Program-made: the position numbers and the translations under genes
The notes under the pieces: model-generated
Databases searched by the model: none
Told to the model about the DNA's origin: nothing
The model's input: only the letters and a program-made list of their open reading frames with translations
Shown here: positions 2,477 to 45,643 of the stretch, one piece after another
Position numbering within the stretch: position 1 is the first letter of the stretch
How the letters are laid out: every line of letters starts with the position of its first letter
Source: a virus
UHGV virus genome: UHGV-1789659
Direction: 5' to 3' (one strand)
DNA: 47,750 nucleotides

Positions 2477-2540
2477 AAACCTCTTTCCTTAGTGCCTTTT
2501 GTATGTTATTTGGCTATTATAATAAGTAAGTAATTACTTA

Positions 2541-3239
2541 GTGGATTGTAGCAATAAAATGGATGTAAAAATCACGATTTTGCAGGTTGATGTTGCCAAC
2601 CTTCGCCCGAATACCTGGAACACCAATTCGGTTGGTGCGCAGAATTTTGAAAAACTGAAAGGTTCTATCGAAAAATTGGGCTTTTTTAAGCCAATTTTGG
2701 CTCGTGAACTTGAAGATGGATTTTTTGAAATCCTCGGCGGCGAACATCGCTGGCGTGCTGCTATTGAGCAAGGAATTTCAACGGTTCCGGTGCTTTCTGT
2801 GGGCAAAATTAGCGATGTCGTAGCTAAACAGATGTCACTAGTGGACAACGAGCGATACGGTGAAGACGACCAAATCGCATTGCAACGCTTCATTGAAGAA
2901 ATTCAGTCAGAACTTGACTATCAACTGTCTGAAATCGCCCCGTATGACGACGAAATCTCGATGGTTTTAGCAAAAGAGGCGGCAATCGACCTTGAAGCAC
3001 TGGAGGCGTTGTCTCGTGGTAGTGATGAGCCTGTCGATACCGACAAACGAGAGAAAACCGAACGTGTGGGTGCGGAACATCAGACCATGCGCTTCAAAGT
3101 AACTTTCGATGCGTCAGATCGTGTTGCAGAAACCATAAAAAACATCATCAAAGAGCAGGCTATTAACACCGGTAATGAAATGGAGAACGCTGGTGAGGCT
3201 CTGGTGTGGCTGGTCGACTACTACAAGGAGCGTATGTAA
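2541..3239 (+). CDS. ParB/sulfiredoxin-like N-terminal domain protein with acidic C-terminus
   Basis: ILGGEHRWRAAIEQGISTVPV matches the ParB N-domain GxxRxxA box; stop overlaps the next start (TAATG). Confidence 0.7.
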   Translation: MDCSNKMDVKITILQVDVANLRPNTWNTNSVGAQNFEKLKGSIEKLGFFKPILARELEDGFFEILGGEHRWRAAIEQGISTVPVLSVGKISDVVAKQMSLVDNERYGEDDQIALQRFIEEIQSELDYQLSEIAPYDDEISMVLAKEAAIDLEALEALSRGSDEPVDTDKREKTERVGAEHQTMRFKVTFDASDRVAETIKNIIKEQAINTGNEMENAGEALVWLVDYYKERM

Positions 3240-3907
3240 TGACCAAAAAGTTTGAAATCGTATATCGCGACCCGGCAGATCTTATTCCCTATGAGATGAA
3301 TGCCAAAAAGCATGATGAACAGCAGATCCGAGATCTGGCCGCAGCCATTAAAAAGCGCGGATTTGACCAGCCAATTACGGTCGATAAGAACGACGTAATT
3401 ATTACTGGCCACGGCCGCCGTGAGGCTGCAATTTTTGCTGGACTTGAGCGCGTACCGGTTATTGTTCGCGATGATCTCAGTGATGACGAGGTTCGTGCGA
3501 AGCGCCTTGAAGATAACCGACTTGCCAGCATTGATTACGATGCAATTAAGCTACAGAAAGAGCTTGAGTCGCTTGTTCTGGACGATATCGAGGTTTTCGG
3601 CTTTGAAGAGCGGGAGTTGAATGTTCTCGTTGGCAGCATGACAGAAGAAATGGACACCGACTCGCTAGTTATCGATCTGGGCGAAGAAACTAAACGACAG
3701 AAGGATGAACACACCGAGATCAGTCGTGAAGTTGCAGCGGAAGAAGTACGTGTTGTCGACGTATTGGGCTTTAAAACGCTCCCTGCTGGCTCTGCCATTG
3801 TTGTTGGTGATTTGCTTGCCCACATGGAAGAAATGACGGGAGAAAGCGGGGTAGACGCATTTGTGGCATATGCGGAGAAGATCTCTTCCGGGGAGATGGC
3901 TGCATGA
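3239..3907 (+). CDS. second ParB-like N-terminal domain protein (start set at ATG 3239 with AAGGAG RBS)
   Basis: ITGHGRREAAIFAGLERVPVIV ParB-type box; acidic C-terminal half; translationally coupled on both sides. Confidence 0.7.
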   Translation: MTKKFEIVYRDPADLIPYEMNAKKHDEQQIRDLAAAIKKRGFDQPITVDKNDVIITGHGRREAAIFAGLERVPVIVRDDLSDDEVRAKRLEDNRLASIDYDAIKLQKELESLVLDDIEVFGFEERELNVLVGSMTEEMDTDSLVIDLGEETKRQKDEHTEISREVAAEEVRVVDVLGFKTLPAGSAIVVGDLLAHMEEMTGESGVDAFVAYAEKISSGEMAA

Positions 3908-4569
3908 GCAAATACATCATCAACGTATCGTTTCAGACTCGCGTAAATAAAACCACGCGCACGTTAGAAATCGCCGAATCGTTCGGGCTTGGTCTGGACG
4001 AAAAAGAGTGGACGCTTTACGACAATCTGGAGCTGGAAGTTAGGCAGGGCGATGTGGTGTACATCACCGGCCAATCCGGTTCAGGTAAATCCGTTGTGCT
4101 GCGCGAGCTGCAACGCCAGATGAAGGATGAAGGGCTTTCTGTAGCTTCTATTGATGACTTTACCTTCGATAATGAGGTTAACGTCATTGACCAACTGGGC
4201 AAAACTACCAGTGATGCGCTTGGGTTGTTATCTATGGCAGGTCTGAACGATGCATATCTGTTTGTTCGCAAGCCTTCTGAAATGTCAGACGGTCAGAAAT
4301 ATCGTCTCAAGATTGCCAAACTGATTGAGTCAGGCGCTAAAGTGTGGGCTGCTGACGAGTTCGGTGCTGTTCTCGACCGTGTAACCGCTCAGGTTGTGGC
4401 ATCTAATCTCCAGCGTGCCGCTCGAAAGGTTGGTGCGACGGTAATGGTGGCGACGACTCACGAAGACCTGAAGAACGCGCTGCGCCCGGATATGCAGATC
4501 ACCAAGCACTACAAAGAACGCGTGAAGGTGGAATATCACAATGGTAGTCATGATGAGGTCCATTCATGA
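3904..4569 (+). CDS. small ABC-type ATPase (Walker A/B, signature-like motif, H-loop)
   Basis: Walker A GQSGSGKS, signature-like SDGQKYRL, Walker B VWAADEFG, H-loop ATTHED; ATGA overlap with flanking genes. Confidence 0.65.
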   Translation: MSKYIINVSFQTRVNKTTRTLEIAESFGLGLDEKEWTLYDNLELEVRQGDVVYITGQSGSGKSVVLRELQRQMKDEGLSVASIDDFTFDNEVNVIDQLGKTTSDALGLLSMAGLNDAYLFVRKPSEMSDGQKYRLKIAKLIESGAKVWAADEFGAVLDRVTAQVVASNLQRAARKVGATVMVATTHEDLKNALRPDMQITKHYKERVKVEYHNGSHDEVHS

Positions 4570-5456
4570 CGGACATCATCATTAAACGCTACCGCACTGA
4601 AGAGTTTCCGCGTCATCTGGACTTTCTGGAGCGAATGACTGTTACAAAGGGAACTGTAGAGGACTGGCACGCTCTTAAGTCGCTTCACTACAAAACAGAC
4701 GGCAAACCTTTCGCGCCAACTTACTATCGCTGCGAACTTGATGACCGTCTGGTGGGCGTCGTGGTTATGGCTTACCCGAAACTACTGTTGGCACCTCGCC
4801 ACCGCATGTTTCCTAAGTTGAAACCAACCACTAATACCACCGTGGCTAACCAGTACTGGGGTCGGTACGTGAATAACAACTTTGCGGTGATTAGTCGCTC
4901 AGTTGTGGATACTCAGTATCGTGGCGTAGGCGTCTCTTATCGAATGATTAACCTGGTTAGCAGGATGCATGACCGGCCAATCATTGAGATCCAGTCCTCG
5001 ATGAGCAAATACAATCCCTTCGCCATGAAAGCAGGGTTTAAGTTCATCCGCCCTGAGCGACCGAAGAGCTATGAAAGTGCACTGCGTGTTTTCCAGCGTC
5101 ATTTTCGTTCCGACCCGGGTGATAACGAGGCGATCGTCAAAGAGTTGTTCGCAATGAGCGAGTCACGTCGTCGCCGTGCACTGCGTGATCTGGTGGCGGA
5201 CTACCACAAGAACAGTTCCCTGGCAAAAGCTGGGCGGAATCGCGGCACGACGATTCAGGACATTGCCGACAGTCTGGTGGACGAGGCCAGTATTGTGAAG
5301 CTGCTCAAGGACATTCACAACCTTAGCTTTACGTCTCCGTTGTATGGTGTGTATCGAAACCCTGACTTTGGTCGTCGACTGCCTGACACGCTGCCACTGC
5401 TGGCATTCGACAAACAACCTTTGGATAAACCGTTAGAAATTGCTTTACCGGCATAA
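4566..5456 (+). CDS. hypothetical protein with GNAT-like motif A
   Basis: 296-aa ORF; QYRGVGVSYRMINLV resembles the acetyl-CoA-binding motif A (Q/RxxGxG/A) of GNAT folds; coupled start (ATGA). Confidence 0.5.
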   Translation: MTDIIIKRYRTEEFPRHLDFLERMTVTKGTVEDWHALKSLHYKTDGKPFAPTYYRCELDDRLVGVVVMAYPKLLLAPRHRMFPKLKPTTNTTVANQYWGRYVNNNFAVISRSVVDTQYRGVGVSYRMINLVSRMHDRPIIEIQSSMSKYNPFAMKAGFKFIRPERPKSYESALRVFQRHFRSDPGDNEAIVKELFAMSESRRRRALRDLVADYHKNSSLAKAGRNRGTTIQDIADSLVDEASIVKLLKDIHNLSFTSPLYGVYRNPDFGRRLPDTLPLLAFDKQPLDKPLEIALPA

Positions 5457-5465
5457 GGATTTGCC

Positions 5466-5732
5466 ATGACGTTAACCGACAAACAAAAGGACATCATCAA
5501 AACGCTCAATCTCGGTTATGAGCGAGGTCATCTACTTGATCTGGACGAATTGCTTGAAGTTTTGCCGTACAAGACAACAAAGCAAAGTATCCAGTTCTCA
5601 ATTCGCGCTCTGATAAAAAAGGGGCTGGTGGAGAAAGGGCATACGCGCCAACGCAGTGACAATCGCTATCACCGCCGGACTCTTGGGTTAACCACTTTAG
5701 GTCGAGCCAAAGCGAAGTTACTGGTGATGTAA
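5466..5732 (+). CDS. small basic protein, possible winged-helix DNA binder
   Basis: 88-aa ORF with AAGGA RBS, last gene of the five-gene operon; basic C-terminus. Confidence 0.45.
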   Translation: MTLTDKQKDIIKTLNLGYERGHLLDLDELLEVLPYKTTKQSIQFSIRALIKKGLVEKGHTRQRSDNRYHRRTLGLTTLGRAKAKLLVM

Positions 5733-5756
5733 TCGGTCTGGGACGTTATTTAAAGA

Positions 5757-5811
5757 CCTGCTTCTGTATATATAAATAATAAGTAACTTATTAAATATAT
5801 ACGGAAGCAGG
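5757..5811. repeat. 55-bp near-perfect palindrome (copy 1) with AT-rich core containing AATAAGTAACTTATT
   Basis: Arms CCTGCTTCTGTATAT / ATATACGGAAGCAGG read directly; a second copy lies at 36597-36645. Confidence 0.8.
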
Positions 5812-5875
5812 CTTAGTAAGACATGCCCAGACCTAATTAGACACACCAGAAAACAAGTTGGTTAGCAGATGCAGT

Positions 5876-5890
5876 AAACAAGTTGTTTTA
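5876..5890. promoter_or_regulatory. AAACAAGTTGTTT operator-like inverted repeat upstream of the terminase operon
   Basis: Near-palindrome; a related GAAAACAAGTTGG lies at 5847-5860; similar sites upstream of parA and the dnaB-like gene. Confidence 0.35.
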
Positions 5891-5928
5891 GAGCGCATGG
5901 ACGCGCTCTGTGTGTTTTAGAGGGATCT

Positions 5929-6561
5929 ATGACTGTCGAAAAAGACGAGGTAAAAACTCGCCTGACACCAGCGGAGTGGGCCGAAGCTGAAGCCAAATGG
6001 ACGTCAGGCGAATATACACTCTCAAAGCTGGAGGAAGAGTACGGCATTCGTCGTGAAACACTCTCCAGACATTTCAAAAAGCGAGGATTAGAGAAAGGCG
6101 CGGACTCTGTTGGGAAGATGGTTCGTGAGTCTCTTAAATCTGACGCAGAGCTTCGCGCTAAAGCCCGTGCGGAAAAGATAGAAGAACGTCGTACACGTTA
6201 TGACGGCTGGGCGTATGCGTTGGGGCAGATGGTGATGGTCGAAGTCACTACGGCCAAACGTGAGGGTAAGCCTTTAGGGGCGATTGAGGGTTCTCTCAAG
6301 AGCTTACAGAGAGCCAGTAATACCCTTGCAAAATGCTTTGAAGTTTCGTCCAAAGCATTGGGCATGGATCATGCGGAAAATGACGAGGAAGAAATTCCGA
6401 ACCTGGTATTTGGTGAGCTTACGCCTTCCCAGGTGGCGAAATTACGTCAGGAAGACGACGAGCCTGAAATCATCGATGACGAATTGCTTGAGACGTTGGA
6501 AGAAGAAGCTCTAAGCGAATTTGATGCGACAGATGATGGAAGTGAAGGGGAGGACGAATAA
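5929..6561 (+). CDS. putative terminase small subunit
   Basis: 210-aa ORF directly upstream of and coupled to the large terminase (TAATG); acidic C-terminal tail; GAGGGA RBS. Assignment is by position only. Confidence 0.45.
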   Translation: MTVEKDEVKTRLTPAEWAEAEAKWTSGEYTLSKLEEEYGIRRETLSRHFKKRGLEKGADSVGKMVRESLKSDAELRAKARAEKIEERRTRYDGWAYALGQMVMVEVTTAKREGKPLGAIEGSLKSLQRASNTLAKCFEVSSKALGMDHAENDEEEIPNLVFGELTPSQVAKLRQEDDEPEIIDDELLETLEEEALSEFDATDDGSEGEDE

Positions 6562-7817
6562 TGGTAATCCCGTCCTCGCTCAGTCTTGTGCAACTGCATT
6601 CTGGACAGATGAAAGTCTTCCAGTCTCCGCATCGATTTAAAGTTGTTTGTGCTGGTCGACGCTGGGGAAAATCCCGGTTGTCGATCTCCACTATTATTCG
6701 TGCGGCGGCAAAGGAAAAAAAGCAAAGGGTCTGGTATGTCGCTCCTACTTACCAGATGGCTCGCCAGATTTTGTGGGACGATCTACAGGAAGTTCTGCCC
6801 CGTAAGTGGGTTAGGAAAAAGAACGACACCACGATGACAATCGTGTTGAAGAACGGTTCGGAGATCGCCCTCAAAGGTGCTGATAAACCTGACACTCTGC
6901 GCGGCGTAGCGTTGCATTTTGTAGTGCTTGATGAATTTCAGGATATGAAGGCTGACACCTGGTACAAGGTGTTACGACCTACTCTTTCATCGACACGCGG
7001 CGGTGCACTGATTATTGGTACGCCAAAAGGCTTCTCGGAATTTCACAAACTGTGGACTATAGGCCAGAACGTAGAGCTGCAAAGAAAGGGACAGTGGAAG
7101 AGCTGGCAGTTTGTAACTGCTGATTCGCCGTTTGTGCCTACGGCGGAAATTGAAGCTGCTAAGAACGATATGGACCCTAAATCGTTCGCTCAGGAGTACC
7201 TGGCCAGCTTTGAAAATATGTCCGGGCGCGTTTACTACCCGTTCGATCGAAACGTGCATGTTAAACCGCTTCAGTTCAACCCTCGGTTGCCTATATGGGT
7301 AGGACAGGACTTCAACATTGACCCGATGTCTTCCGTAATTTTGCAACCTCAGCCAAATGGTGAGCTATGGGCAATTGATGAATTGGTGCTCTTTTCCTCT
7401 AACACGGCAGAGGTTTGTGATGAGCTTGAGAGGCGCTTCTGGCGCTGGAAATCACAGATAACGGTATTTCCAGATCCGGCAGGTGCTTATCGCCAACATG
7501 CTCGCGGGGAGTCTGACGTAGACATATTCAAAGAGAAGGGATTCTTACGTGTCGATTATTCGAAAAAGCACCCGCCAATTGCGGATCGTGTTAATGCTGT
7601 TAACCGAATGCTGATGACCGCATCTGGAGATATCCGGCTGTATATCGATCCGAAGTGCAAGCATTTGATTGATTCACTGGAAAAGGTCATCTACAAGCCT
7701 GGAACACGAGATATGGATAAGACAGGTGGCATTGAGCATAGTGCAGACGCATTGGGCTATCCAGTACATCGTAGGTATCCAGTCAAAAACCGTGTTATTC
7801 TTGGTGGTTCTCGATAG
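6561..7817 (+). CDS. terminase large subunit
   Basis: Walker A-like VVCAGRRWGKS and Walker B HFVVLDEFQD in the N-terminal ATPase region; C-terminal nuclease-sized domain; GAGG RBS. Confidence 0.85.
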   Translation: MVIPSSLSLVQLHSGQMKVFQSPHRFKVVCAGRRWGKSRLSISTIIRAAAKEKKQRVWYVAPTYQMARQILWDDLQEVLPRKWVRKKNDTTMTIVLKNGSEIALKGADKPDTLRGVALHFVVLDEFQDMKADTWYKVLRPTLSSTRGGALIIGTPKGFSEFHKLWTIGQNVELQRKGQWKSWQFVTADSPFVPTAEIEAAKNDMDPKSFAQEYLASFENMSGRVYYPFDRNVHVKPLQFNPRLPIWVGQDFNIDPMSSVILQPQPNGELWAIDELVLFSSNTAEVCDELERRFWRWKSQITVFPDPAGAYRQHARGESDVDIFKEKGFLRVDYSKKHPPIADRVNAVNRMLMTASGDIRLYIDPKCKHLIDSLEKVIYKPGTRDMDKTGGIEHSADALGYPVHRRYPVKNRVILGGSR

Positions 7818-7832
7818 GTAAGTAATTATCTA
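7813..7832 (+). promoter_or_regulatory. GATAGGTAAGTAATTATCTA conserved intergenic motif
   Basis: Member of the GATA(A/G)GTA(A/G)GT palindromic family, immediately upstream of the portal gene. Confidence 0.4.
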
Positions 7833-7843
7833 AGGTTATTCAA

Positions 7844-9418
7844 ATGGAATTGAACGACAAACAAATTAAGGATCTGGTGGCGCGACGCCACCCGGAATAC
7901 GAAAAGAAAAAAGAACATTGGGACTTCCTCGCCAGCACTTACGCTGGCGGGCGTGGTTGGTTTACAGACAATATCTTTCGTTACTTTAAAGAGGGAGATC
8001 AGGAGTTTAAGGAGCGAGTTGAGCGTGCTTATCGCTTCAACCACACTCGTGAGGTGGTAAACCTCATCAACAAATATCTCTTTAAAGAAGACATTCATAG
8101 AAATATCGAAGAGGCACCAGAGCAGATCCGCAATTTCTGGAAACGTGCGACCCGCCAGAATGCCTCTATTGACTCATTTATGGCCGCTATTGATTTGCAG
8201 TCGTCTATTTACGGTCGCATATGGGTTGTTGTCGATAGCACGATGAGTGGTGATGTTGAGTCAGTAGCTGACGAGAAAAAGAAAGATGCTCGCGCCTACG
8301 CCTACTGGATTTCACCTCAGCAAATGCTGGATGTGGCATGGGACGACGACGGGAATATGTTGTGGGCGTTAATTGTGGAAGTCGCTCGTGATGACGCAGA
8401 TCCTTTTACTTCTACAGGTCAGGAATACCAACGTTATCGTCTGTGGACACAAAACGAGTGGTATCTGTTTCGTGAGGAAGTGAAGAAGGGCGCTGGTGGA
8501 GCAGGTCGCCGTCAGGCAAAAGTTATTTTAGAGGATAGCGGTGCGCATAATCTCGGCGTAGTTCCTGTGTTTCCTGTTGATTGTATTGGAGAAAGTGAAT
8601 CACCGTATTTCAGCCCATCGTTGATCGATGATATCGCTTATCTTGATCGTGCGGTTGCAAACTATCTGTCAAACCTTGATGCCATTATTCAGGATCAGAC
8701 ATTTAGCCAGTTGGCTATACCGGTACAGTCGCTTTTACCTGGTGATGAAAACCACACTAAAGTGCTTGAAATGGGCACAAAGCGAGTCTTCACCTACGAT
8801 TCTGAAGGTGGAAACCAGCCGTTTTATCTGTCACCAGACCCGAAACAAGCTCAGATGATCATCACTACGATTAAGACGGTGATTAACGAAATCTACCATT
8901 CAGTTGGTGTAGCTGGTGAGCGAACGAAGCAGGACAACGCACAGGGAATCGATAACTCATCTGGTGCCGCAAAAATGTATGACTTCCAGCGTGTAAATAG
9001 CTTGCTTGTCACAAAAGCAGAGCGTCTGGAAAGGGCTGAACGCCAAATCATGCTACTGGTTGCGAAATGGATGGGGGTAGATCTGGACGAAGACCACTCT
9101 TTAATTGCGTATCCAGAAAGTTTCGATATTCGTGGCCTTACTGATGAATTTTCTGTTGCCGAGAAACTGTCGTTACTTCAGGCACCGGACTCTGTACGTC
9201 GTCACCAGATGGAAATGCTGATTGAGAAGATTTTCCCGAACATCACTGAGGCGATGAAGAAGGAATTTGATAAAGATCTCTTGAATTTTCCGCCAAAAAA
9301 TGATCTAAATACCCTTGAAAATAAGTCAGTACTTACTTATGATCAAGACGCAGCCCAAGAAAGCGGGCAAGATCAACCCCGAGGGAATGGGGACTCATCT
9401 ACTCAAGAGAACGAGTGA
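7844..9418 (+). CDS. portal protein (by size and position)
   Basis: 524-aa ORF between large terminase and scaffold; acidic C-terminus. Confidence 0.65.
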   Translation: MELNDKQIKDLVARRHPEYEKKKEHWDFLASTYAGGRGWFTDNIFRYFKEGDQEFKERVERAYRFNHTREVVNLINKYLFKEDIHRNIEEAPEQIRNFWKRATRQNASIDSFMAAIDLQSSIYGRIWVVVDSTMSGDVESVADEKKKDARAYAYWISPQQMLDVAWDDDGNMLWALIVEVARDDADPFTSTGQEYQRYRLWTQNEWYLFREEVKKGAGGAGRRQAKVILEDSGAHNLGVVPVFPVDCIGESESPYFSPSLIDDIAYLDRAVANYLSNLDAIIQDQTFSQLAIPVQSLLPGDENHTKVLEMGTKRVFTYDSEGGNQPFYLSPDPKQAQMIITTIKTVINEIYHSVGVAGERTKQDNAQGIDNSSGAAKMYDFQRVNSLLVTKAERLERAERQIMLLVAKWMGVDLDEDHSLIAYPESFDIRGLTDEFSVAEKLSLLQAPDSVRRHQMEMLIEKIFPNITEAMKKEFDKDLLNFPPKNDLNTLENKSVLTYDQDAAQESGQDQPRGNGDSSTQENE

Positions 9419-9439
9419 TAAGTAACAAAGGGAATTTTT

Positions 9440-10327
9440 ATGAAACTGTGGCAAATGCTTTTGGCCCGTCGTGGTCTGATGGATGTTGCTGAAGCGTATG
9501 AGCGTGGAGGCGCTGGCGGTGTAGCTGCTGATAATGAGCAGAGTACACAAGATCCTGACAAACAGGGTGAACAAAAAGAGCAGCCGAAGGGTGATGACGA
9601 ATACGCTGGCATGACTCATGAAGAGTTACTGGCCGAACTTCGCAAAACCAAGAAAGCTGGTGCTGAACTGCTGAAAGAGAACATGAAGCGCAAAGAGAAA
9701 GAGCGCACATTGGCCGATCAGCTTGCTCAGTACGGTGATATCGACCCGGCGCGTGCTCGCCAGCTTTTAGAAGCTGAACAGGCCGCAGAAAATGCACGTC
9801 GTGAGGCGGAGCAAGCTGAACTGGAGCGTCGTGGTGAGTTCGATGCTGTTAAAAAACAGATGATCGAAGCACACCAGGCAGAGCTGGCACAGCGTGACGA
9901 ACGTTATACAGCACTGGAAAGTGAAAACGCATCACTGAAATCTCAATTAGTCGAGATGACCGTGGGCGCTTCCTTCAGTAACTCTCTCTTCCTACGTGAC
10001 AAAGTTCTGATGACTCCGGCAAAAGCCCGCGTGATCTACGGTTCTCATTTTGAAGTGGGTGAAGACGGTAGCGTAGTGGGTTATGACAAACCGGCAGGTC
10101 ATAAAGAACGAGCTGTTCTGGTTGACGGTGAAGGTAAGCCGTTGCCGTTTGAATCCGCGATTGAACGCATTGTGCGGGCAGATCCGGAAGCTGACGCATT
10201 GATGCGTAGCGAAGCCAAGCAGGGTGTAGGCTCACATTCTAAATCGACCTACACAATATCCCAACCGAAGAACAAGTCGACTATGGATAAGTTGGCCTCC
10301 GGTCTGGGGAAAATTGGACTTAAGTAA
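9440..10327 (+). CDS. scaffolding protein
   Basis: Charged, Ala/Glu/Arg-rich helical sequence (AELERRGEFDAVKKQMIEAHQAELAQRDERY) between portal and capsid genes; AAGGGA RBS. Confidence 0.6.
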   Translation: MKLWQMLLARRGLMDVAEAYERGGAGGVAADNEQSTQDPDKQGEQKEQPKGDDEYAGMTHEELLAELRKTKKAGAELLKENMKRKEKERTLADQLAQYGDIDPARARQLLEAEQAAENARREAEQAELERRGEFDAVKKQMIEAHQAELAQRDERYTALESENASLKSQLVEMTVGASFSNSLFLRDKVLMTPAKARVIYGSHFEVGEDGSVVGYDKPAGHKERAVLVDGEGKPLPFESAIERIVRADPEADALMRSEAKQGVGSHSKSTYTISQPKNKSTMDKLASGLGKIGLK

Positions 10328-10352
10328 CATCTAAATCAAAGGGAATTGATAG

Positions 10353-11228
10353 ATGCCATTACTGCGTGAAGAAGCTGAAAAGCTGTCTAACAACGAACTC
10401 GAACAGGGTGTGATCGAAACTATCATTGATCGCGATGACCTGTTTGCCATCCTGCCTTTTATGAAAATTAATTCAAAGGCATATCTGTACAATCGTGAAA
10501 AAACGCTGAGTGAAGCTACCTTCATCGACGTTAATGACACCATCCCGGAAGGTGCAGCAACCTTCGAAGAATGCGTTGCGAAACTGCGTATTCTGGCTGG
10601 TGACGTAGACGTTGATAAATTCCTGGCAACCACTATGGCCGACACCAATAACCAGTTGGCTATTCAGGTTCGTCAGAAAGTTAAAGGTCTGGCTCGTGCG
10701 TTCCGTCGCAATCTGATTTTGGGTGACTCCAGCACCAACAACAAAGCGTTTGACGGCATTCCACGCCTGATGCACGCAGATCAGAAGATCGATATCGCCG
10801 GTGCATCTATGACTTTCTCTATGTTCGACGAACTGGTCGATGCGGTGAAAGATCTTGGTGCTGACTGCATCATGATGCGTTCAGAGCACCTGCGTGCTTA
10901 CCGTGCGCTGCTGCGTACAGTAAACGTAGGCCCGTCTGAAATCATGATGGAGAACTTCGGTCGTCCGATGCTGTGTCATAACGGCGTTCCGTTCATCATC
11001 AACGACTTCATCCCGACCGATGCTGGCAAAGCAAGCATCTACTGCCTGCATCTGTCAGAAGAGAACGGCGTTACTGGTCTGTATGGCGGCGACAACGCAG
11101 GTATCGTTGTTGAAAACATTGGTACTGTACAGAACAAAGACGCAGTACGTACCCGTGTGAAGTGGTACTGCTCTCTGGCGAATAAGCACGATAAGGCTAT
11201 CGCTGCACTGACCAATGTAAAAATTTAA
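10353..11228 (+). CDS. major capsid protein (by position)
   Basis: 291-aa ORF after the scaffold gene, followed by a strong hairpin terminator. Confidence 0.6.
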   Translation: MPLLREEAEKLSNNELEQGVIETIIDRDDLFAILPFMKINSKAYLYNREKTLSEATFIDVNDTIPEGAATFEECVAKLRILAGDVDVDKFLATTMADTNNQLAIQVRQKVKGLARAFRRNLILGDSSTNNKAFDGIPRLMHADQKIDIAGASMTFSMFDELVDAVKDLGADCIMMRSEHLRAYRALLRTVNVGPSEIMMENFGRPMLCHNGVPFIINDFIPTDAGKASIYCLHLSEENGVTGLYGGDNAGIVVENIGTVQNKDAVRTRVKWYCSLANKHDKAIAALTNVKI

Positions 11229-11237
11229 TCAGTGTGG

Positions 11238-11255
11238 TAGATAAGTAATTATCTA
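11238..11255 (+). promoter_or_regulatory. TAGATAAGTAATTATCTA conserved intergenic palindrome
   Basis: GATAAGTA-family motif between the capsid stop and the hairpin. Confidence 0.4.
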
Positions 11256-11262
11256 TGTTTAA

Positions 11263-11288
11263 GGGTGGGCTATACGCCCACCCTTTTT
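11263..11288 (+). terminator. rho-independent terminator after the capsid gene
   Basis: GGGTGGGC-TATAC-GCCCACCC stem-loop followed by TTTTT. Confidence 0.65.
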
Positions 11289-11301
11289 GTAGGAGCAAGA
11301 A

Positions 11302-12222
11302 ATGCCAGAACAAAAGATGAAGATTACGGAAGAGGCATTTTCGGATTTTACGGGGCATATGTGCCGCGCCGGATTTACCAATTCTATCTCCGATGAACCT
11401 TTAACCGAGCGGCAACAAAGTCAGCTATCTGCTTGTTTGCAGGCGGTTCCCTTCTCCCAATCCGTAAACATAACTCCGGCTTCACCATCAGTTTTGGTTG
11501 GGAAAACTGTTCAACTTAGTGCAGGTATTAGTATGGGTAAGAGTGCCAGTTCATTCACCTGGAAGTCAGCCAATGATCAAATTGCAACCGTTAACGGCAC
11601 TGGATTAGTAACTGGCGTAGCCCCAGGCAAAGTAAAAATTACTGCAACTGATCAGGAAACCCAGCTTTCCGCTTCAGTGGAAGTCACCGTAAATCCGGTA
11701 GCCGTTCAATCCGTAACGGTAACGCCAGACTCAACCTCTGTTGAGAAAGGAAAATCAGTCAGTCTGAAAGCGAATGTTCAGCCGTCAAATGCGACGAATA
11801 AGGCTGTTACCTGGTCTTCCAAAAATGAAGATAAGGCAACGGTAGACCAGAGCGGGAACGTAACTGGTGTAGAAGTTGGCACTGCGACGATTGAGATCGT
11901 TTCCCAAGATGGTAGCAAAAAGGCAACTGCAACGGTGGAAGTAACTGCGCCTGTTGTGGCTGTTACAGGCGTCGAAATCGACCCAAATAGCACAACCGTT
12001 GAGGCAAACAAAACTGTTCAGCTGACCGCAAATGTCGAGCCGGTAGGAGCCACAAATAAAACCGTTACTTGGGAATCCAAAAATACCGAGTTTGCAACGG
12101 TGGACAGCGAAACCGGTGTTGTAACTGGTGTTGCGGCTGGCACTGCCACAATCGAGGTTACTACCCAAGATGGTAGCCACAAAGCGACAGCGACCGTAGA
12201 GGTCACTGCCGCACAGGAATAA
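11302..12222 (+). CDS. Big_2 (bacterial Ig-like) domain protein, likely capsid decoration
   Basis: Three tandem roughly 85-aa Ig-like repeats (VTVTPDSTSVEKGKSVSLKANVQP...ATATVEVTA pattern); AGGAG RBS. Confidence 0.75.
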   Translation: MPEQKMKITEEAFSDFTGHMCRAGFTNSISDEPLTERQQSQLSACLQAVPFSQSVNITPASPSVLVGKTVQLSAGISMGKSASSFTWKSANDQIATVNGTGLVTGVAPGKVKITATDQETQLSASVEVTVNPVAVQSVTVTPDSTSVEKGKSVSLKANVQPSNATNKAVTWSSKNEDKATVDQSGNVTGVEVGTATIEIVSQDGSKKATATVEVTAPVVAVTGVEIDPNSTTVEANKTVQLTANVEPVGATNKTVTWESKNTEFATVDSETGVVTGVAAGTATIEVTTQDGSHKATATVEVTAAQE

Positions 12223-12266
12223 CCGATATTGGGCGGCGAAAGCCGCCCAAGTGGAGAGAAAGCGTT

Positions 12267-12701
12267 ATGAAACCAGCAAAAATTGTTTTATTAGAACCGC
12301 AATTTTCCGGTTATTCGGGAATGCTGTGCGGCGTTCAGTTCGAGAACGGGGTATCCGTAGCGGAGTTGCCTTTTATCGATCAGCAGAGGATTTGTGCTTC
12401 AATGCGAGCGTCAACAGTAGAGGGCAAAAATGTCTCTCCGTCTGCCGCATACAGTGATCGTGGTGAATTGACAGCAGACCTGATTACCGAGCCAGCAGCG
12501 CCTGACATTGTGCCAATGAAACGTGGAACACCAGATGAACCGGCCAAACAGATCCAGGCTTTCACACGAGAAGAGCTGGAGTCCATTGCAGACAACGAAG
12601 GTATTGCCGGTCTACGAGTTATTGGTAATCAGGTTGGTGTCAAAGCGAAAGGAATTGTCGAGATGATTGAAGGCATCCTGAAAGCACAAGGCGGTGAGTA
12701 A
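12267..12701 (+). CDS. hypothetical head/connector-region protein
   Basis: 144-aa ORF in the structural operon. Confidence 0.45.
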   Translation: MKPAKIVLLEPQFSGYSGMLCGVQFENGVSVAELPFIDQQRICASMRASTVEGKNVSPSAAYSDRGELTADLITEPAAPDIVPMKRGTPDEPAKQIQAFTREELESIADNEGIAGLRVIGNQVGVKAKGIVEMIEGILKAQGGE

Positions 12702-13534
12702 TGGCGCAGATCGACTCGTATCGTAGCGGTGAAGCTGTTTCTCTTTCATTTGCCTTCAACGTGCTGGATATCGAATCTGCCACCTACACAGTAAAGGACA
12801 GCACCGGGGCTATTCTCGTTGATGGCGAGCCGCTAGAAATTACCAGCGGGCAAATGTCGATTCCGGTTGTCGTGTCGGCTGAATATAACCAGCTCTCTGA
12901 GAAAGAACGCGATCTGCGGTACGTCATTGTGAAGGCTGTTGCATCGGGTCTGACGCATGAAGAGCGGCAAATGTATGTTCTGCTGAATAGTTTTGAACTG
13001 TCGATACCAGAACAGTCGTTTGCAACTGTCGCTGATGCTCAAATGCAGGCGATTGATATGCTGAATGGGGACACTTTGCTGTCGGATGGTGAAGGCTTAA
13101 TGCGCAAGCGTCTCATTGAGGCTACCAGACGAATTAAAACTTTACCGTTCTCAATCCGCAAAATTCTACGTATCGACTTTGACCGATACGATCGCCCTCA
13201 AAATATGCTGAATGTGTATGACATTCCGTGGGGAGCAGATGGAGCGTACCGGCATGATTTAGTCGATTGGGAAAAGATGACGCAGGAGAAGTTTGAAGAG
13301 TTCCCTGACTACTTCAAAGAAGCGTTGATGCTTGCCGTTGTCAACGAAGCGTGTGAGATCGCAAATGGCAATGATGTTGCCGCAGCACGAGAAGATGGCA
13401 TTTTGTCAGAGTCCATCGGTGAAACAACCAACATGTACCGTACCGGTAAAGCTGCAAACGTGCATGTGGCTCGCAGTACCTGGCGCTTGCTGGTCAGTTA
13501 CATTAACAACCGTATGATTGTTCGCCGTGCGTAA
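12701..13534 (+). CDS. hypothetical structural protein
   Basis: 277-aa ORF, coupled to the previous gene (TAATG). Confidence 0.5.
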   Translation: MAQIDSYRSGEAVSLSFAFNVLDIESATYTVKDSTGAILVDGEPLEITSGQMSIPVVVSAEYNQLSEKERDLRYVIVKAVASGLTHEERQMYVLLNSFELSIPEQSFATVADAQMQAIDMLNGDTLLSDGEGLMRKRLIEATRRIKTLPFSIRKILRIDFDRYDRPQNMLNVYDIPWGADGAYRHDLVDWEKMTQEKFEEFPDYFKEALMLAVVNEACEIANGNDVAAAREDGILSESIGETTNMYRTGKAANVHVARSTWRLLVSYINNRMIVRRA

Positions 13535-13613
13535 CGCTAGTCGCATTATTTACTTTTGGTCGAAATGGTTTTTGGCCAGTAATGAGAGCGACCGACAACA
13601 ACAGGGAGAGAGC

Positions 13614-14422: not shown

Positions 14423-14423
14423 T

Positions 14424-14807: not shown

Positions 14808-14814
14808 GTTAATC

Positions 14815-14832
14815 GGTAAGTATATACTTACC
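14815..14832 (+). promoter_or_regulatory. GGTAAGTATATACTTACC perfect 18-bp palindrome
   Basis: GATAAGTA-family motif upstream of the major tail gene. Confidence 0.4.
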
Positions 14833-14881
14833 ATTAGCGCAATGAATGCGTAGAATTAACGGAAAAAGGAGTTTTCCATCA

Positions 14882-15628: not shown

Positions 15629-15641
15629 TCAGTAATTAAGC

Positions 15642-21303: not shown

Positions 21304-21325
21304 GATAAGTAAGTGCTAATTTACT
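21304..21325 (+). promoter_or_regulatory. GATAAGTAAGTGCTAATTTACT conserved motif
   Basis: GATAAGTA-family motif, followed by the GGCGCT...AGCGCC hairpin (21343-21365), upstream of the L-like gene. Confidence 0.4.
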
Positions 21326-28222: not shown

Positions 28223-28240
28223 ATAAGTAGGTACTTACTT
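28223..28240 (+). promoter_or_regulatory. ATAAGTAGGTACTTACTT conserved motif followed by GGTGGGC hairpin
   Basis: GATAAGTA-family motif, then GTGGTGGGC-AAGGATA-GCCCACCA hairpin (28244-28268), upstream of the side fibre gene. Confidence 0.4.
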
Positions 28241-28285
28241 TGTGGTGGGCAAGGATAGCCCACCAAATCAAGGAGCATATTCAAC

Positions 28286-31933: not shown

Positions 31934-31954
31934 GATAGGTAAGTGCATACCTAT
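31934..31954 (+). promoter_or_regulatory. GATAGGTAAGTGCATACCTAT conserved motif
   Basis: GATAAGTA-family imperfect palindrome upstream of the lysis cassette. Confidence 0.4.
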
Positions 31955-34710: not shown

Positions 34711-34724
34711 AAAACAAGTTGTTT
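34711..34724. promoter_or_regulatory. AAAACAAGTTGTTT operator-like site upstream of parA
   Basis: Near-palindrome shared with sites at 5876 and 37512. Confidence 0.35.
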
Positions 34725-35787: not shown

Positions 35788-35788
35788 C

Positions 35789-36572: not shown

Positions 36573-36596
36573 TATTGGTAGTATCAACAATTATGA

Positions 36597-36645
36597 CCTG
36601 CTTCCGTATATAATAAGTATCTTAGTATATATATACGGAAGCAGG
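36597..36645. repeat. 49-bp palindrome (copy 2) with AT-rich AATAAGTATCTTAGTAT core
   Basis: Arms CCTGCTTCCGTATAT / TATACGGAAGCAGG; same family as 5757-5811. Confidence 0.8.
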
Positions 36646-36728
36646 TCTTTTAAAGACACCCACCAGAACAACTCCCTTCTGTTTCCACTTCCAAAAACTG
36701 CCACCAGTCGCTATCATCCGCTCATTGT

Positions 36729-36750
36729 GATAAGTAAGTATCTACCTACC
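36729..36750 (+). promoter_or_regulatory. GATAAGTAAGTATCTACCTACC conserved motif
   Basis: GATAAGTA-family motif directly upstream of the replication-module first gene. Confidence 0.4.
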
Positions 36751-37511: not shown

Positions 37512-37526
37512 GAAAACAATTTGTTT
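37512..37526. promoter_or_regulatory. GAAAACAATTTGTTT operator-like near-palindrome upstream of the helicase gene
   Basis: AACAA-T-TTGTT inverted repeat; same family as the sites at 5876 and 34711. Confidence 0.35.
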
Positions 37527-38968: not shown

Positions 38969-40150
38969 ATGAGCCTTTATGTTATATCAACATTTAGGTT
39001 GGTCACAATATTGCCTGTTAAAAGTGGAATTATCGTGAGCGAGCTGAAAGAGCTAATTGCCGAATTAGATTTTGAACAATGGTTGGATACTGAAGGTATC
39101 GTTTATCGACGTGGAGGCGTGAGTGCTCGCGGTCGTGAAGTGAATATCAAGGAGTGTCCGGTATGCGGCAGCTCCAACTGGAAGGTATATTTCAATCTGA
39201 CCAGCGGCGTCGGTAAATGCTTCGCTGGTGATCATCCCGAAGAGATTCAGTTCAATAAGCTGGTCTTCCTCAAGCACCACAGCGGTAAATCACGACGACA
39301 GTTCGAGGAATATGTGCAGAACGCTCTTCTTTCCCAGGGGTGGGCACCAAAGAAAGAAGAGATAGTGCTTGCAAGCACAGTCGAGTTAGAGGGACCACTT
39401 GCACTCCCTCGTCATTACGAACTTCCTATAGATGGCCGTCTTCCAGACTATCTGGTTGAACGAAACATATCGCCTGAAATGGCAAAGTATTTTGACCTAC
39501 GATACTGCGTCGAAGGCAAGCACGCTTATGTTGATCCGTATACAGATCAGGTTAAAGGACAGATATTCGATATGCGAATACTGATACCGGTTTACGATCT
39601 GGATGGGGTAATGAAGACATTTCAGGGACGAGACATTACCGGTACAGCAGAACGCCGCTACCTCTTTCCTATGCAGCTTCCAGCTTCAGGTAAGTTTCTC
39701 TACAACGGCCATAATGCGGTCGGCAAACAGACTGTAGTTGTCTGTGAGGGGGCGTTCGATGTTATGGGGGTTAAACGAGCTATTTTTGATGAAGAAACAT
39801 TACGTGATTACGTGGAACCGATAGGAACGTTCGGGATGCATCTATCTGGTAACACCACTCAGGATGCAGAAGATCAGTTAGGCGCGTTCCTGACGCTCAA
39901 GGCGCGTGGATTACGTAATGTGATCATGATGTGGGATAGTGAAAAGCAAGCTATACGCAACACGATGGCCGCAGCCAGGCGACTGACCAGTATTGGTCTT
40001 AATGTCAAAGTTGCGTGTTTGGGCGAGGAAGGACTCGACCCCGGCGATGCGACACCGGGGCAGATTATCAAAGCCTACTATTGCGCAAAACCTTACTCAC
40101 GACAGCTTGAACTTTTAAGCAAGGTAAAAGGTATAGCAGCATTAGTTTGA
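38969..40150 (+). CDS. DNA primase (zinc-ribbon plus TOPRIM)
   Basis: CPVCGSSNW...CFAGDH zinc-ribbon-like N-terminus; TOPRIM VVVCEGAFDVMG. Start uncertain: ATG 38969, or GTG 39036; ORF track opens at 38915. Confidence 0.7.
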   Translation: MSLYVISTFRLVTILPVKSGIIVSELKELIAELDFEQWLDTEGIVYRRGGVSARGREVNIKECPVCGSSNWKVYFNLTSGVGKCFAGDHPEEIQFNKLVFLKHHSGKSRRQFEEYVQNALLSQGWAPKKEEIVLASTVELEGPLALPRHYELPIDGRLPDYLVERNISPEMAKYFDLRYCVEGKHAYVDPYTDQVKGQIFDMRILIPVYDLDGVMKTFQGRDITGTAERRYLFPMQLPASGKFLYNGHNAVGKQTVVVCEGAFDVMGVKRAIFDEETLRDYVEPIGTFGMHLSGNTTQDAEDQLGAFLTLKARGLRNVIMMWDSEKQAIRNTMAAARRLTSIGLNVKVACLGEEGLDPGDATPGQIIKAYYCAKPYSRQLELLSKVKGIAALV

Positions 40151-41395
40151 ACCAGTATTAGTCACGTAAACATTGACCGAAAATGATTTAACTTCTGTGT
40201 TGAAGTTGTCAGTCATTACCGCGAGGTAGGCATTCTTGGTATCTCTGAATTGCTTCAGGATGATTTGAACGTTATCGGTGCAAACAAACGAGGTAGCCAG
40301 ATTGCCTCCTTTCTCTGAAAAATCCTTCAAGAAGGTGCAGTCAACTTTGCCATCATTAGCGGTAAAGACGGCATCATCACCCTGCCAGGTAAATGTTGCG
40401 TTAACGCCTTTATCAATGGATTTAGCAATAAGTCGCTGAGTGTCAGATTTGGCATTTTGCTGTTTTGAAGGCGAACGGAACGTACCTTTTGCTTTCATTG
40501 CAGCAACGTTTTCGCAGCCCGTTTCGTCATCTTTATCGCAAGCAGCTTGGTAAAGCTCTGATGCTTTCCGATAATCCTGTTTGACGCCCAATCCCTTAAG
40601 ATACATGTAACCAAGGTGGTTCATGGCATAATCATTTCCTAAGCTGATTGCTTGTTCTAAAAGACTTCTGGCCTTCGAATAGTCTTTTTTTATACCTTCT
40701 CCATGCATCAACTTGTATCCAAGCGCGCTCATGGCGTTATTATTTCCTAATTCAGCTGCTTTCAAGTACCACTTAATTGCCTCTTTATTGTTGCGCTTAA
40801 CAGCAACACCATCGTCGTACATAGAGCCTAGCCCATACATTCCTGCGGCATTTCCACTATCCGCAGCCTTTTTATAAGATTTAAATGCTTTCTTGTAATC
40901 TTTCGGAACTCCCTTACCGTATTGATATAAATATCCCATATAGGCAAGCGAAGGTATATCACCAGCTTCTACTGCTAGTTTGTGATATTTTAAAGCAGCT
41001 TCTGGGTCCTCCTTTCCAGTCCAACCTCGTTCGTATATAACGGCAAGATTATGGTAAGCACTGCCGTTGCGAGCATTTCCTGCTAGTTTGTAGTACTCAA
41101 CGGCCTTATTTAGATCTTTATCTACTCCCTTCCCAATTGTGTACATAACCCCAAGCGCATAATATGCTACTTTATCTCCCTTTTCTGCGGCGAGATCGAT
41201 CCACTTCTTGGCCTCTACTAAATCCTCATCAAAGCCATTAGCCCCATCCAAATAATTTGTCCCTAACGCACTTTGTGCTGTGGTATCTCCTGCGGTGGCG
41301 GCGTCGATCAGCGTTTGTTTATTATCTGCGTTAACGTATCCAGGGCCGAAAAGCAAAGCTAATGCCAGCAACGATGAAGGTTTTATGAGTTTCAT
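40142..41395 (-). CDS. secreted Sel1-like repeat (SLR/TPR-like) protein
   Basis: Signal peptide MKLIKPSSLLALALLFGPGYVNA; about eight 36-aa Sel1-type repeats; C-terminal 110-aa non-repeat domain; 3-prime end overlaps the primase stop convergently. Confidence 0.75.
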   Translation of the reverse strand: MKLIKPSSLLALALLFGPGYVNADNKQTLIDAATAGDTTAQSALGTNYLDGANGFDEDLVEAKKWIDLAAEKGDKVAYYALGVMYTIGKGVDKDLNKAVEYYKLAGNARNGSAYHNLAVIYERGWTGKEDPEAALKYHKLAVEAGDIPSLAYMGYLYQYGKGVPKDYKKAFKSYKKAADSGNAAGMYGLGSMYDDGVAVKRNNKEAIKWYLKAAELGNNNAMSALGYKLMHGEGIKKDYSKARSLLEQAISLGNDYAMNHLGYMYLKGLGVKQDYRKASELYQAACDKDDETGCENVAAMKAKGTFRSPSKQQNAKSDTQRLIAKSIDKGVNATFTWQGDDAVFTANDGKVDCTFLKDFSEKGGNLATSFVCTDNVQIILKQFRDTKNAYLAVMTDNFNTEVKSFSVNVYVTNTGSN

Positions 41396-41622: not shown

Positions 41623-42036
41623 ATGAGCAAAAAGAAGTTGATTTTAACAGGTGCTTTATTGTCGTTGTTTGCATTAGTTGGGTGTAAGCCTACAGACGAG
41701 AAGGCTATTACTCTGGGCCAACAGGCAATTGCGGATGATATGAAAGATCCCACGTCGGTGATGTTTAGGAAAGATAAGTTTGTCAGGACTGATCATGATG
41801 ATGGGAGTGTGACAGGCTTTGTGTGTGGTGAATTAAACGCCAAAAATGGCTTTGGTGCATACGTGGGCTATCACTCATATGTTGTTGAACTCGAAATGAA
41901 GCCAAAGGGCATGTTTTCAAAAGGGGTGGTATACAAAATCCTATCGAAGTCGTTGGCACCTAATGATCCTCATGATTTACAGCGTTATAAGCAGGTCTAC
42001 AGAAAGATGTGCAACAGTGAGGCTGTAGCTCATTAA
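41623..42036 (+). CDS. putative lipoprotein
   Basis: Signal peptide with lipobox LVG-C (MSKKKLILTGALLSLFALVGC); RBS AAAGGGAAG. Confidence 0.6.
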   Translation: MSKKKLILTGALLSLFALVGCKPTDEKAITLGQQAIADDMKDPTSVMFRKDKFVRTDHDDGSVTGFVCGELNAKNGFGAYVGYHSYVVELEMKPKGMFSKGVVYKILSKSLAPNDPHDLQRYKQVYRKMCNSEAVAH

Positions 42037-42099: not shown

Positions 42100-42118
42100 G
42101 ATAAGTAGATACATACTT
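42100..42118 (+). promoter_or_regulatory. GATAAGTAGATACATACTT conserved motif
   Basis: GATAAGTA-family motif upstream of the 42162 gene. Confidence 0.4.
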
Positions 42119-42161
42119 AAGTTTTTGTAAGAATACTTTCATCCGTTAGCTAGGAGTTGGT

Positions 42162-42976: not shown

Positions 42977-42995
42977 GATAGGTAAGCACAAGATT
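42977..42995 (+). promoter_or_regulatory. GATAGGTAAGCACAAGATT conserved motif
   Basis: GATAAGTA-family motif upstream of the 43012 ORF. Confidence 0.35.
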
Positions 42996-43011
42996 ATTTC
43001 TGGCGGTAATT

Positions 43012-44977: not shown

Positions 44978-45176
44978 GCGGGAGAAGGAAACGCTTCATG
45001 AAATCAGTAAGTGGCCGGAGTTCCCTGAGTACTGGAGGCCTAAAACGCGGGCTAAGTTAGAGCGTTTAGGGTTGGTTGCAAACGTTTCTGAAACGAAGTG
45101 TTCGGCCAACTACCAGTTAACTGATAACGGGAAAGTATTGCTACAGCAATTAGTAGAATCAGGAGCATTAGAATGA
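44961..45176 (+). CDS. hypothetical small protein
   Basis: 71-aa ORF with GGAG-containing RBS region, overlapping the previous small ORF. Confidence 0.4.
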   Translation: MIVLSKREKETLHEISKWPEFPEYWRPKTRAKLERLGLVANVSETKCSANYQLTDNGKVLLQQLVESGALE

Positions 45177-45199
45177 TTCCATACATCTAATTAGCTTTT

Positions 45200-45325
45200 A
45201 TGGTTGGCTTCCTTATCGGCTTCGGCATCTGTCGTGATTTAATTAAGCAGGAACTTAAAACCAAAACACTGTGCATCGGAAAGCGCGTGTATCGGGTAGT
45301 TCATGAAACAAAGGTGAAAAAATGA
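45200..45325 (+). CDS. small ORF (41 aa), truncated paralogue of the 44798 membrane protein
   Basis: VGFLIG...C...IK.....G.R.YR.V..T shared with the 44798..44977 product; stop overlaps the next start (ATGA). Confidence 0.3.
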   Translation: MVGFLIGFGICRDLIKQELKTKTLCIGKRVYRVVHETKVKK

Positions 45326-45612
45326 GCAAATTAACTTCTTGGGAATGGTGGTTGGCCACCTATTTCTTAGCGGCCGGAGTCGCATTCGCCTTTTACGTAG
45401 GTCAGTTAGTCGTAAAACTGTTGCTTATTAAATTTGCTAGTCATAAACGTATCGATGATGGTCTGTGGCGTCTTGGTACCCTGGTGGAAACTCGCTACGG
45501 GCAACTTAAGGAGAACGAAACCATTACTATCCAAGCGAAACGATTCACTGCCACCATCACAAGAACACCTGATCGTAGAGTGGCCTTGATCAAAAAAGTC
45601 ACAACCGAATAA
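45322..45612 (+). CDS. small membrane protein
   Basis: 96-aa ORF with N-terminal TM helix (WWLATYFLAAGVAFAFYVGQLVV). Confidence 0.45.
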   Translation: MSKLTSWEWWLATYFLAAGVAFAFYVGQLVVKLLLIKFASHKRIDDGLWRLGTLVETRYGQLKENETITIQAKRFTATITRTPDRRVALIKKVTTE

Positions 45613-45621
45613 AAATACAAT

Positions 45622-45643
45622 GATAAGTATTTACTTACTTATC
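45622..45643. promoter_or_regulatory. GATAAGTATTTACTTACTTATC palindrome
   Basis: GATAAGTA / TACTTATC arms with 6-nt spacer at the start of the noncoding tRNA region. Confidence 0.4.

Follow-up and report, generated by a model that had tools for sequence, protein, structure and literature searches.

A dispersed palindrome before the lytic genes of SSU5-like phage-plasmids, a candidate operator of a phage-encoded regulator

The window studied here, that is, the whole stretch of 47,750 nucleotides (nt) of the virus genome UHGV-1789659, carries many copies of a real and strongly conserved palindrome of 18 to 26 base pairs (bp). With a probability of roughly one half, this palindrome is the operator of a phage-encoded symmetric regulator (dimeric or dimer-of-dimers) that would repress the lytic transcription units. 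Over positions 6000 to 26000, the identity of the window with Escherichia phage Cyrano (pLF82, from E. coli LF82) amounts to 97.5% and that with Salmonella phage SSU5 to 80%, and the window matches 797 plasmid records from Escherichia, Klebsiella, Enterobacter, Yersinia, Salmonella and other genera. On the strength of these matches, the window can be assigned to an SSU5-like phage-plasmid of E. coli.

The core of the motif is TARGTA-N6-TACYTA, which is symmetric, and its full consensus reads ATGATARGTAAGT|ACTTACYTATCAT. A frequency table built from 217 distinct copies gives the core T-A-R-G-T-A-A-G-T-A-C-T-T-A-C-Y-T-A. When half-site pairs are counted at all spacings, TAAGTA and TACTTA are separated by 6 bp, the 4-bp AAGT periodicity of the motif also yielding spacings of 2 and 10; flanks included, the mirror symmetry reaches about 13 bp on each side of the centre. 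The first-pass annotation of this DNA had described an 11-mer, GATARGTARGT, with a partial inverted half. The exact 11-mer is in clear excess (5 matches in the window against 0.03 expected), but a palindrome of 18 bp, or of 26 bp with its flanks, is the more accurate description of the element. With at most one mismatch, TARGTA-N6-TACYTA occurs 9 times in the window against 0.20 expected, a count reached by none of 100 shuffles. A weighted 18-mer score of at least 21, the threshold used to call a copy strong, is attained at 11 sites, compared with 0.16 in dinucleotide shuffles (maximum 2). The eleven positions proposed earlier all carry the element; ten of them stand, the one at 42977 is weak (score 19), and a strong copy at 9322-9339 had been missed. 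Being palindromes, the copies are listed without strand, and the scores are weighted 18-mer scores:

2523..2540, copy TAAGTAAGTAATTACTTA, score 25, with 0 mismatches to TARGTA-N6-TACYTA
7815..7832, copy at the junction of the large terminase (terL) and portal genes, score 23, overlapping the terL stop codon, with the portal ATG 11 nt downstream
9322..9339, copy in the 3' end of the portal gene, score 25, forming the spacer of a sigma70-like promoter
9315..9343, plus strand, that sigma70-like promoter, TTGAAA-17-TATGAT, with 10 of 12 matches and the same in Cyrano
11238..11255, copy after the major capsid gene, score 21, followed by a terminator-like hairpin at 11263-11279, with an orthologous copy in SSU5
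14813..14830, copy before the major tail gene, score 22, overlapped by sigma70-like matches
21306..21323, copy between minor tail genes M and L, score 22, followed by a hairpin at 21334-21356
28224..28241, copy between tail tip gene J and the tail fibre gene, score 23, with orthologues in Cyrano and SSU5
31936..31953, copy before the holin gene, score 24, its right end merging into TATAAT
36731..36748, copy 13 nt upstream of the start codon (ATG) of the gene that comes before the replicative helicase gene, score 24, with orthologous copies found
42102..42119, copy with score 23, followed 6 nt on by TGTAAGAAT, an extended -10-like box (42126-42134)
42979..42996, weak copy TAGGTAAGCACAAGATTA, score 19, its Cyrano orthologue scoring 20
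45624..45641, copy with score 24 and 0 mismatches, within an extended palindrome GATAAGTA-N6-TACTTATC at 45622-45643

A perfect 18-bp palindrome, GGTAAGTATATACTTACC, lies at 14815-14832, and a sigma70-like match at 21302-21330 overlaps the copy at 21306. The GC-rich hairpins that had been reported after the copies at 11238, 21304 and 28223 are all present; the last, read directly from the sequence, has no T run.

Ten of the 11 strong copies in the window are intergenic. Since the motif carries stop codons in two of its three frames, some depletion from genes is to be expected; corrected for this, the finding of at most one copy out of 11 in coding sequence has a probability of 1e-7 in the window, and the placement in the whole genome one of about 1e-10. 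In the complete genome of Cyrano (108 kb), of which only 13% is intergenic, sites with at most two mismatches form 32 clusters and 28 of these are intergenic, while 26 copies score at least 20, a value reached by about 4 positions per shuffled genome. The Cyrano copies precede plus-strand genes for virion proteins, lysis, replication, recombination and nucleotide metabolism, at 2 to 63 nt from the start codon, and sometimes overlap the ribosome-binding site. The earlier statement that the copies mostly sit in the gaps upstream of plus-strand operons is upheld, the intergenic bias surviving the stop-codon correction. The SSU5 copies occupy orthologous places. One of them stays beside the holin gene despite four extra genes between the holin and tail fibre genes, and another stays with the gene at 42162 despite insertions of genes upstream, both in this window and in SSU5. 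Because the copies remain with the downstream gene when genes are inserted upstream, the motif is a 5' feature of genes and not a 3' one. The insertion in the window comprises a gene for a Sel1-repeat protein (40142-41395, minus strand) and a small open reading frame (41623-42036), placed between the primase gene and the copy at 42102; it is absent from the same place in Cyrano, and SSU5 has a different minus-strand gene there.

This placement also bears on a role of the DNA outside transcription, either as a centromere-like site for ParB-like proteins or as a sequence for the exchange of modules. The best-scoring copy lies just upstream of two genes for proteins with a ParB_N domain, and insertions of accessory genes adjoin copies. 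Yet the copies are found at gene starts all over the genome instead of being clustered, and 18-26 bp is short for homologous exchange. As for the ParB-like proteins, which the first-pass annotation had put forward as candidate binders, they match only the N-terminal domain, ParB_N, and their genes are silent in the lysogen, that is, in the plasmid state. A role of this kind is very improbable.

The conservation of the motif was studied in 80 related loci around the portal gene, with portal identities from 100% down to 69%. At the terL/portal junction a copy is kept in 48 of 49 distinct relatives, with a mean identity of 0.80 over the 18-mer, 0.88 in the outer half-sites and 0.65 in the inner six bases, compared with 0.37 for the 11 non-coding bases that follow. 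The copy at 9322 is kept in 50 of 54 distinct relatives. In the distant clades the changes affect the inner bases or position 3 of the half-site, and the architecture is kept (GGTTAAC, TTTAAA, and TATGTA in the clade of locus L085). In L085 (IMGVR_UViG_3300045988_137065), the half-sites at 4224, 11632 and 13528 are mostly TATGTA/TACATA and not TARGTA, and a MarR-like protein presented below has an isoleucine in place of an alanine in its recognition helix (FSIRILIKK instead of FSIRALIKK), a possible case of co-variation between site and protein. A search for the exact 20-bp palindrome in 2.9 million viral contigs gave 39 matches; the five contigs that were new with respect to the portal search are all SSU5-like according to tblastn, and the others were recognised by name from that search. 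To judge from these comparisons, the motif is a family-wide feature of SSU5-like phage-plasmids.

Another reading is that the sites are bound by a host transcription factor common to Enterobacterales, which would couple the lytic genes to a host signal. The family is found with the same half-sites in Escherichia, Salmonella, Klebsiella, Yersinia, Xenorhabdus and Providencia (the clade including locus L080 comes from Xenorhabdus, Providencia and Moellerella). The half-sites would fit the degenerate NarL heptamer TACYYMT, and a 14-bp version may resemble the RcsB box. Nevertheless, the orientation and spacing of the heptamers differ from those of 7-2-7 sites, and among viral contigs the exact palindrome is confined to the SSU5-like family; a host factor is very improbable.

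The position of the copies in front of start codons raises the question of whether the element acts as DNA or as RNA. In the latter case it would be a hairpin in the 5' leader, the target of a translational repressor or of a processing enzyme, possibly of the FljA family. The distance of 2 to 63 nt to the start codons and the overlap with some ribosome-binding sites are in keeping with this, some copies fold at -6 to -8 kcal/mol, and the element encodes a Flag1_repress (FljA) protein. FljA acts on the messenger RNA of fliC. Nevertheless, no compensatory covariation between the half-sites was detected in the junction alignment beyond what column composition explains: paired cells make up 78.1% at the terL/portal junction and 76.5% in shuffled columns, and the mid-stem pair 9-22 is an A·C mismatch in 11 of 29 junction sequences. 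The third position and its partner are A/T in 15 distinct copies, G/C in 13, A/C in 11 and G/T in only 3, so that on the transcribed strand A..C combinations outnumber G..U ones. The predicted RNA hairpins are weak and AT-rich (-2 to -8 kcal/mol) and differ in register, two copies fold no better than shuffles, and the motif has no match in Rfam. A structured RNA or an intrinsic terminator was rejected on these grounds, and a translational role of the hairpin is held to have very little chance of being right. Since changes in one arm are not compensated in the other, it is the half-site sequence that is conserved and not a structure, which favours a double-stranded DNA site probably read by a symmetric protein. 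The proposal of a binding site for a dimeric regulator, already made in the first pass, gains support from the mirror symmetry, the independent variation of the half-sites and the family-wide conservation. The FljA-family protein itself is encoded outside the window (Cyrano 100780-101301, leftward strand; expectation value 1e-80), and its conservation extends to SSU5 as well as further clades; its target might be the expression of host flagellin or the messages of the phage.

The other possibility raised in the first pass, an element-specific promoter, finds no backing. The -10-like hexamer TAnnnT, counted from motif position 17, is found on the downstream side of 10 of 20 copies in Cyrano and on the mirrored side of 8 of 20, the corresponding figures for SSU5 being 10 of 21 and 14 of 21. 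As the mirrored side has the hexamer just as often, the motif shows no directional module, and a directional promoter was discarded. A promoter read by an RNA polymerase or sigma factor specific to the phage would account for the many copies before operons and for the scarcity of sigma70-like promoters in the window (38 compared with about 65 in shuffles). By segment of the window, these matches number 18 against 22.4 in shuffles, 14 against 28.3 and 6 against 14.7. Yet such a promoter would hardly be symmetric, lie as near as 2-13 nt to start codons or stand inside ordinary sigma70 promoters, as some copies do, and the deposited annotations of Cyrano and SSU5 name neither an RNA polymerase nor a sigma factor. 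This is the least credible of the explanations considered here.

The claim that the motif stands in place of sigma70 promoters was in turn too strong, as a quarter of the plus-strand sigma70-like matches of Cyrano (10 of 40) overlap a copy. These matches were defined by -35 and -10 hexamers 16-18 nt apart. The gaps of Cyrano with a motif contain a promoter match in 9 of 20 cases and those without a motif in 5 of 46 (Fisher p = 0.003). The two best promoters, both with 10 of 12 matches, are TTGAAA-17-TATGAT in the portal gene and TTGAAA-17-TATCAT before Cyrano gene 56, and in both the motif is exactly the 17-bp spacer. The former, at 9315-9343, is the best match within positions 1-20000 of the window and precedes the scaffold and major capsid genes; its -35 and -10 hexamers are kept in the distant clades L068, L080 and L081, where the spacer tracks the local variant of the motif. 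The geometry between motif and -10 varies (an overlap of 2 nt, a gap of 1 nt or a gap of 9 nt), which is typical of operators and not of activator sites. The TGTAAGAAT box lies 5-6 nt past the motif at two unrelated Cyrano genes (at 34755 and 84644), one of these two sites being non-orthologous, and likewise at orthologous sites of this window and SSU5; gene 34, behind the first of these boxes, is expressed at 4.5 times background in the lysogen.

The expression of the genes behind the copies was taken from published transcriptomes of LF82 (PMC9928086, supplementary table), which represent an uninduced or weakly induced population and contain no start-site information. In the lysogen, the genes behind the two best promoters are at background level, and no copy precedes a clearly expressed gene except in the divergent region at 2523. 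A few Cyrano genes rise in the macrophage samples, namely 4-5, 12-13, 56-57, 60-62 and 107; genes 4-5 follow the promoter at 9315-9343 and genes 12-13 the copy at 14813, while genes behind copies without a promoter match show no rise. The rise is read as a weak or partial induction; by the paper's own conclusion, the lytic cycle of Cyrano appears repressed in macrophages (PMC9928086).

Because near-consensus promoters are silent in the plasmid state and the geometry of the motif relative to the -10 varies, a repressor acting on the motif is favoured. In the plasmid (lysogenic) state, the regulator would occupy the approximately 26-32 sites of a genome, in the 5' gaps of plus-strand lytic units. 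At sigma70 promoters whose spacer or -35 region coincides with a site, binding of the regulator would exclude RNA polymerase, and the sites inside operons that have no recognisable promoter would serve as auxiliary or roadblock sites. Upon induction the regulator would be lost and all units released together. What the analysis establishes is that the sites exist, how symmetric and how numerous they are, where they lie, how widely the family conserves them and how they overlap promoters; the binding of a protein, its action as a repressor and its identity are inferred.

Two proteins encoded in the window are candidates for the binder:

5466..5732, plus strand, an 88-amino-acid MarR-like winged-helix protein, directly upstream of the small terminase gene (terS)
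636..914, minus strand, a 92-amino-acid protein, encoded in the leftward operon beginning at the copy at 2523

The first had been pointed out earlier as a basic, possibly DNA-binding protein, and its predicted structure turns out to be a MarR-like winged helix: the model has a predicted local distance difference test (pLDDT) value of 82.7, and Foldseek matches it to MepR, ZitR and MarR with template modelling (TM) scores of 0.72-0.78. Its recognition helix is nearly invariant in all clades and its wing varies. Relatives outside the family, which were sought in order to examine their co-occurrence with the motif, were not found, the protein being retrieved from SSU5-like elements only; it is a putative binder of the motif. 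In the LF82 lysogen, expression of the gene for the 92-amino-acid protein reaches 12 times background. The protein sequence hints at a strand-helix-helix pattern, but its model is of low confidence (pLDDT 49) and profile searches gave no family; the protein evolves fast, and its would-be DNA-facing residues differ between clades that share the motif. Gene 45 of Cyrano, annotated as a 'putative repressor', was dismissed as the binder: SSU5 shares the motif but lacks a counterpart of this gene.

Several points speak against a repressor. Promoter overlap is inflated, as the letters of the motif themselves feed some of the promoter matches, and about half of the copies have no recognisable promoter. 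The expression data are also limited by the nature of the population sampled and by the lack of mapped start sites. The copy at 2523 sits between a leftward uvsW-like operon and a rightward ParB-like operon, and on the minus strand TATAAT follows 1 nt past the motif, this leftward -10 being kept in most clades; in the LF82 lysogen the rightward operon is silent but the leftward one is expressed, which fits only if its promoter is autoregulated or escapes. Moreover, the binder is represented by candidate proteins only, and the sole one in the window that folds confidently as a DNA-binding protein, the 88-amino-acid protein, is silent in the lysogen, a misfit for a maintenance repressor. Lastly, the palindrome that phage P1 has between -35 and -10 is bound by an activator.

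This last point leads to the alternative that deserves most attention, in which the palindrome is the site of a phage-encoded activator that replaces the -35 contact at lytic or late promoters, in the manner of the P1 Lpa box, with the protein of 5466-5732 as the activator. The late promoters of P1 share the AAGT/ACTT words and precede portal, packaging, lysis and tail fibre genes, and most copies of the motif lack a good -35. The winged helix-turn-helix gene stands before terS as lpa stands before pacA, is off in the lysogen and goes up under partial induction, as does expression downstream of several copies, and the recognition helix of its product is nearly as invariant across clades as the outer half-sites. 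On the other hand, an activator would be expected to act through a directional module at a constant distance from the -10, the two strongest promoters are close to consensus at both -35 and -10 and should need none, and the copies also precede genes of replication and nucleotide metabolism. The comparison with the P1 system itself was negative for every feature tested. The 9-bp box of P1, AAGTnACTT, is not enriched in the window (2 occurrences against 1.0 expected, only that at 5781 lying close to the start of a gene), positions 1-42000 of P1 lack the SSU5 motif, and no homologue of Lpa was found, the best BLAST match in a database of 123 proteins having an expectation value of 0.17 and phrog_1704, the family of Lpa, yielding no candidate. 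An activator is accordingly a possible but rather unlikely explanation, and the operator of a repressor is preferred.

The motif is also related to two larger palindromes that represent one and the same element; their related cores had been noticed in the first pass:

5735..5833, large palindrome before terS, its centre ATAAGTAACTTAT resembling the motif (score of the centre 20)
36595..36647, the other copy of this palindrome, whose arms of 18 nt are perfect

Their arms, GACCTGCTTCCGTATATA and TATATACGGAAGCAGGTC, surround an AT-rich centre, and a copy is also present in SSU5. In the copy before terS, the centre AAGTAACTT at 5781 is a perfect P1-type box. The two palindromes bracket the block of virion, lysis and parA genes, one just before terS and the other before the replication genes; an origin, a packaging signal and a recombination site are all conceivable roles for them. 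Another palindrome dispersed in the genome, AACAAnTTGTT, in many cases with TAAGAA before it, was found at 5877-5887, 34713-34723 and 37515-37525 of the window. Cyrano has 12 exact copies of it against 0.17 expected, all intergenic; the plus-strand genes that follow them at 12-65 nt (among them terS, parA, helicase and nrdB) form a set that does not overlap with that of the first motif. It is tempting, though doubtful, to see the operator family of about 30 copies and the 12 copies of AACAAnTTGTT as a two-code switchboard that would control the entire 100-kb phage-plasmid of SSU5 type. The 92- and 88-amino-acid proteins would then be regulators of families yet to be characterised, and some copies would be roadblocks within operons, similar to stoperators, in a Gram-negative plasmid prophage.

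As for the content of the window in general, it includes the last part of a leftward operon, with small genes and one for a uvsW-like helicase, genes for ParB-like proteins, the terminase and the virion, those for lysis, a toxin-antitoxin pair, parA and the first replication genes. Two tRNA genes lie on the plus strand at 46395-46463 and 46471-46543, 3' of the last copy of the motif.

SSU5-like phage-plasmids are common in clinical Enterobacterales. In the searchable literature, no description was found of how they choose between plasmid life and lysis, nor any paper describing an SSU5-like repressor, and a search by the letters of the motif returned unrelated papers only. A conserved putative operator before nearly every lytic unit offers a handle to fish out the regulator and to map its regulon, and could also be used for reporters, for induction-proof derivatives and as a sequence signature of the family. 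With it, the switch between lysis and lysogeny in a plasmid family common in the clinic becomes open to direct tests, even if the existence of such an operator will not surprise a phage specialist.

The arrangement is indeed of a known kind, comparable to the C1 operators and Lpa boxes of P1 and to stoperators, and is apparently undescribed for SSU5-like elements. The Lpa box resembles the motif in being a multi-copy palindrome (11 in P1) of an enterobacterial phage-plasmid, in its AAGT/ACTT words and in its position between the -35 and -10 positions (a 9-bp inverted repeat at about -22) before portal, packaging, lysis and tail fibre genes. In the P1 record the module reads AAGT(G/T)ACTT-N4-TAnnnT; of the seven annotated promoters that were read, six have a gap of 4 nt and LPhot one of 9 nt. 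Contrary to the SSU5-type element, which is 18-26 bp long, mirror-symmetric and at a variable distance from the -10, the P1 module is directional and bound by an activator. The C1 operators share with the motif the distribution of many operators for one regulator over a plasmid prophage of about 100 kb, each at the promoter of a lytic function; they are annotated as 17-bp sites, the motif being an 18-bp palindrome. The C1 operators are asymmetric and unrelated in sequence to the motif. No homologue of C1 was found in the element, and homology to either P1 system was rejected, as neither regulator has a homologue here.

ParB/KorB-type sites are palindromes bound by a ParB protein with a helix-turn-helix domain; the two ParB-like proteins of the element match only ParB_N. 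The operators of MarR proteins are palindromes of 16-20 bp that overlap the -35/-10 region, and MarR usually controls one local operon. The shape of the site and the MarR-like fold encoded at 5466-5732, a candidate only, recall these operators, from which the SSU5-type element differs by its number of sites (about 30 and not those of one local operon). The stoperators of phage L5 and the repeated element of SPbeta are short sites present in dozens of copies in intergenic gaps, some of them in promoterless operons, at which an immunity repressor silences the prophage; stoperators are asymmetric and oriented with transcription. The SSU5-type element is palindromic and has no such orientation. 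It is alike in its abundance (26-32 copies), in its intergenic placement (28 of 32) and in the presence of copies inside operons, such as those at the terL/portal junction and between tail genes M and L. As to sigma70 promoters, ten matches with the spacing given above overlap copies, two of them with 10 of 12 matches, and about half of the copies stand without any.

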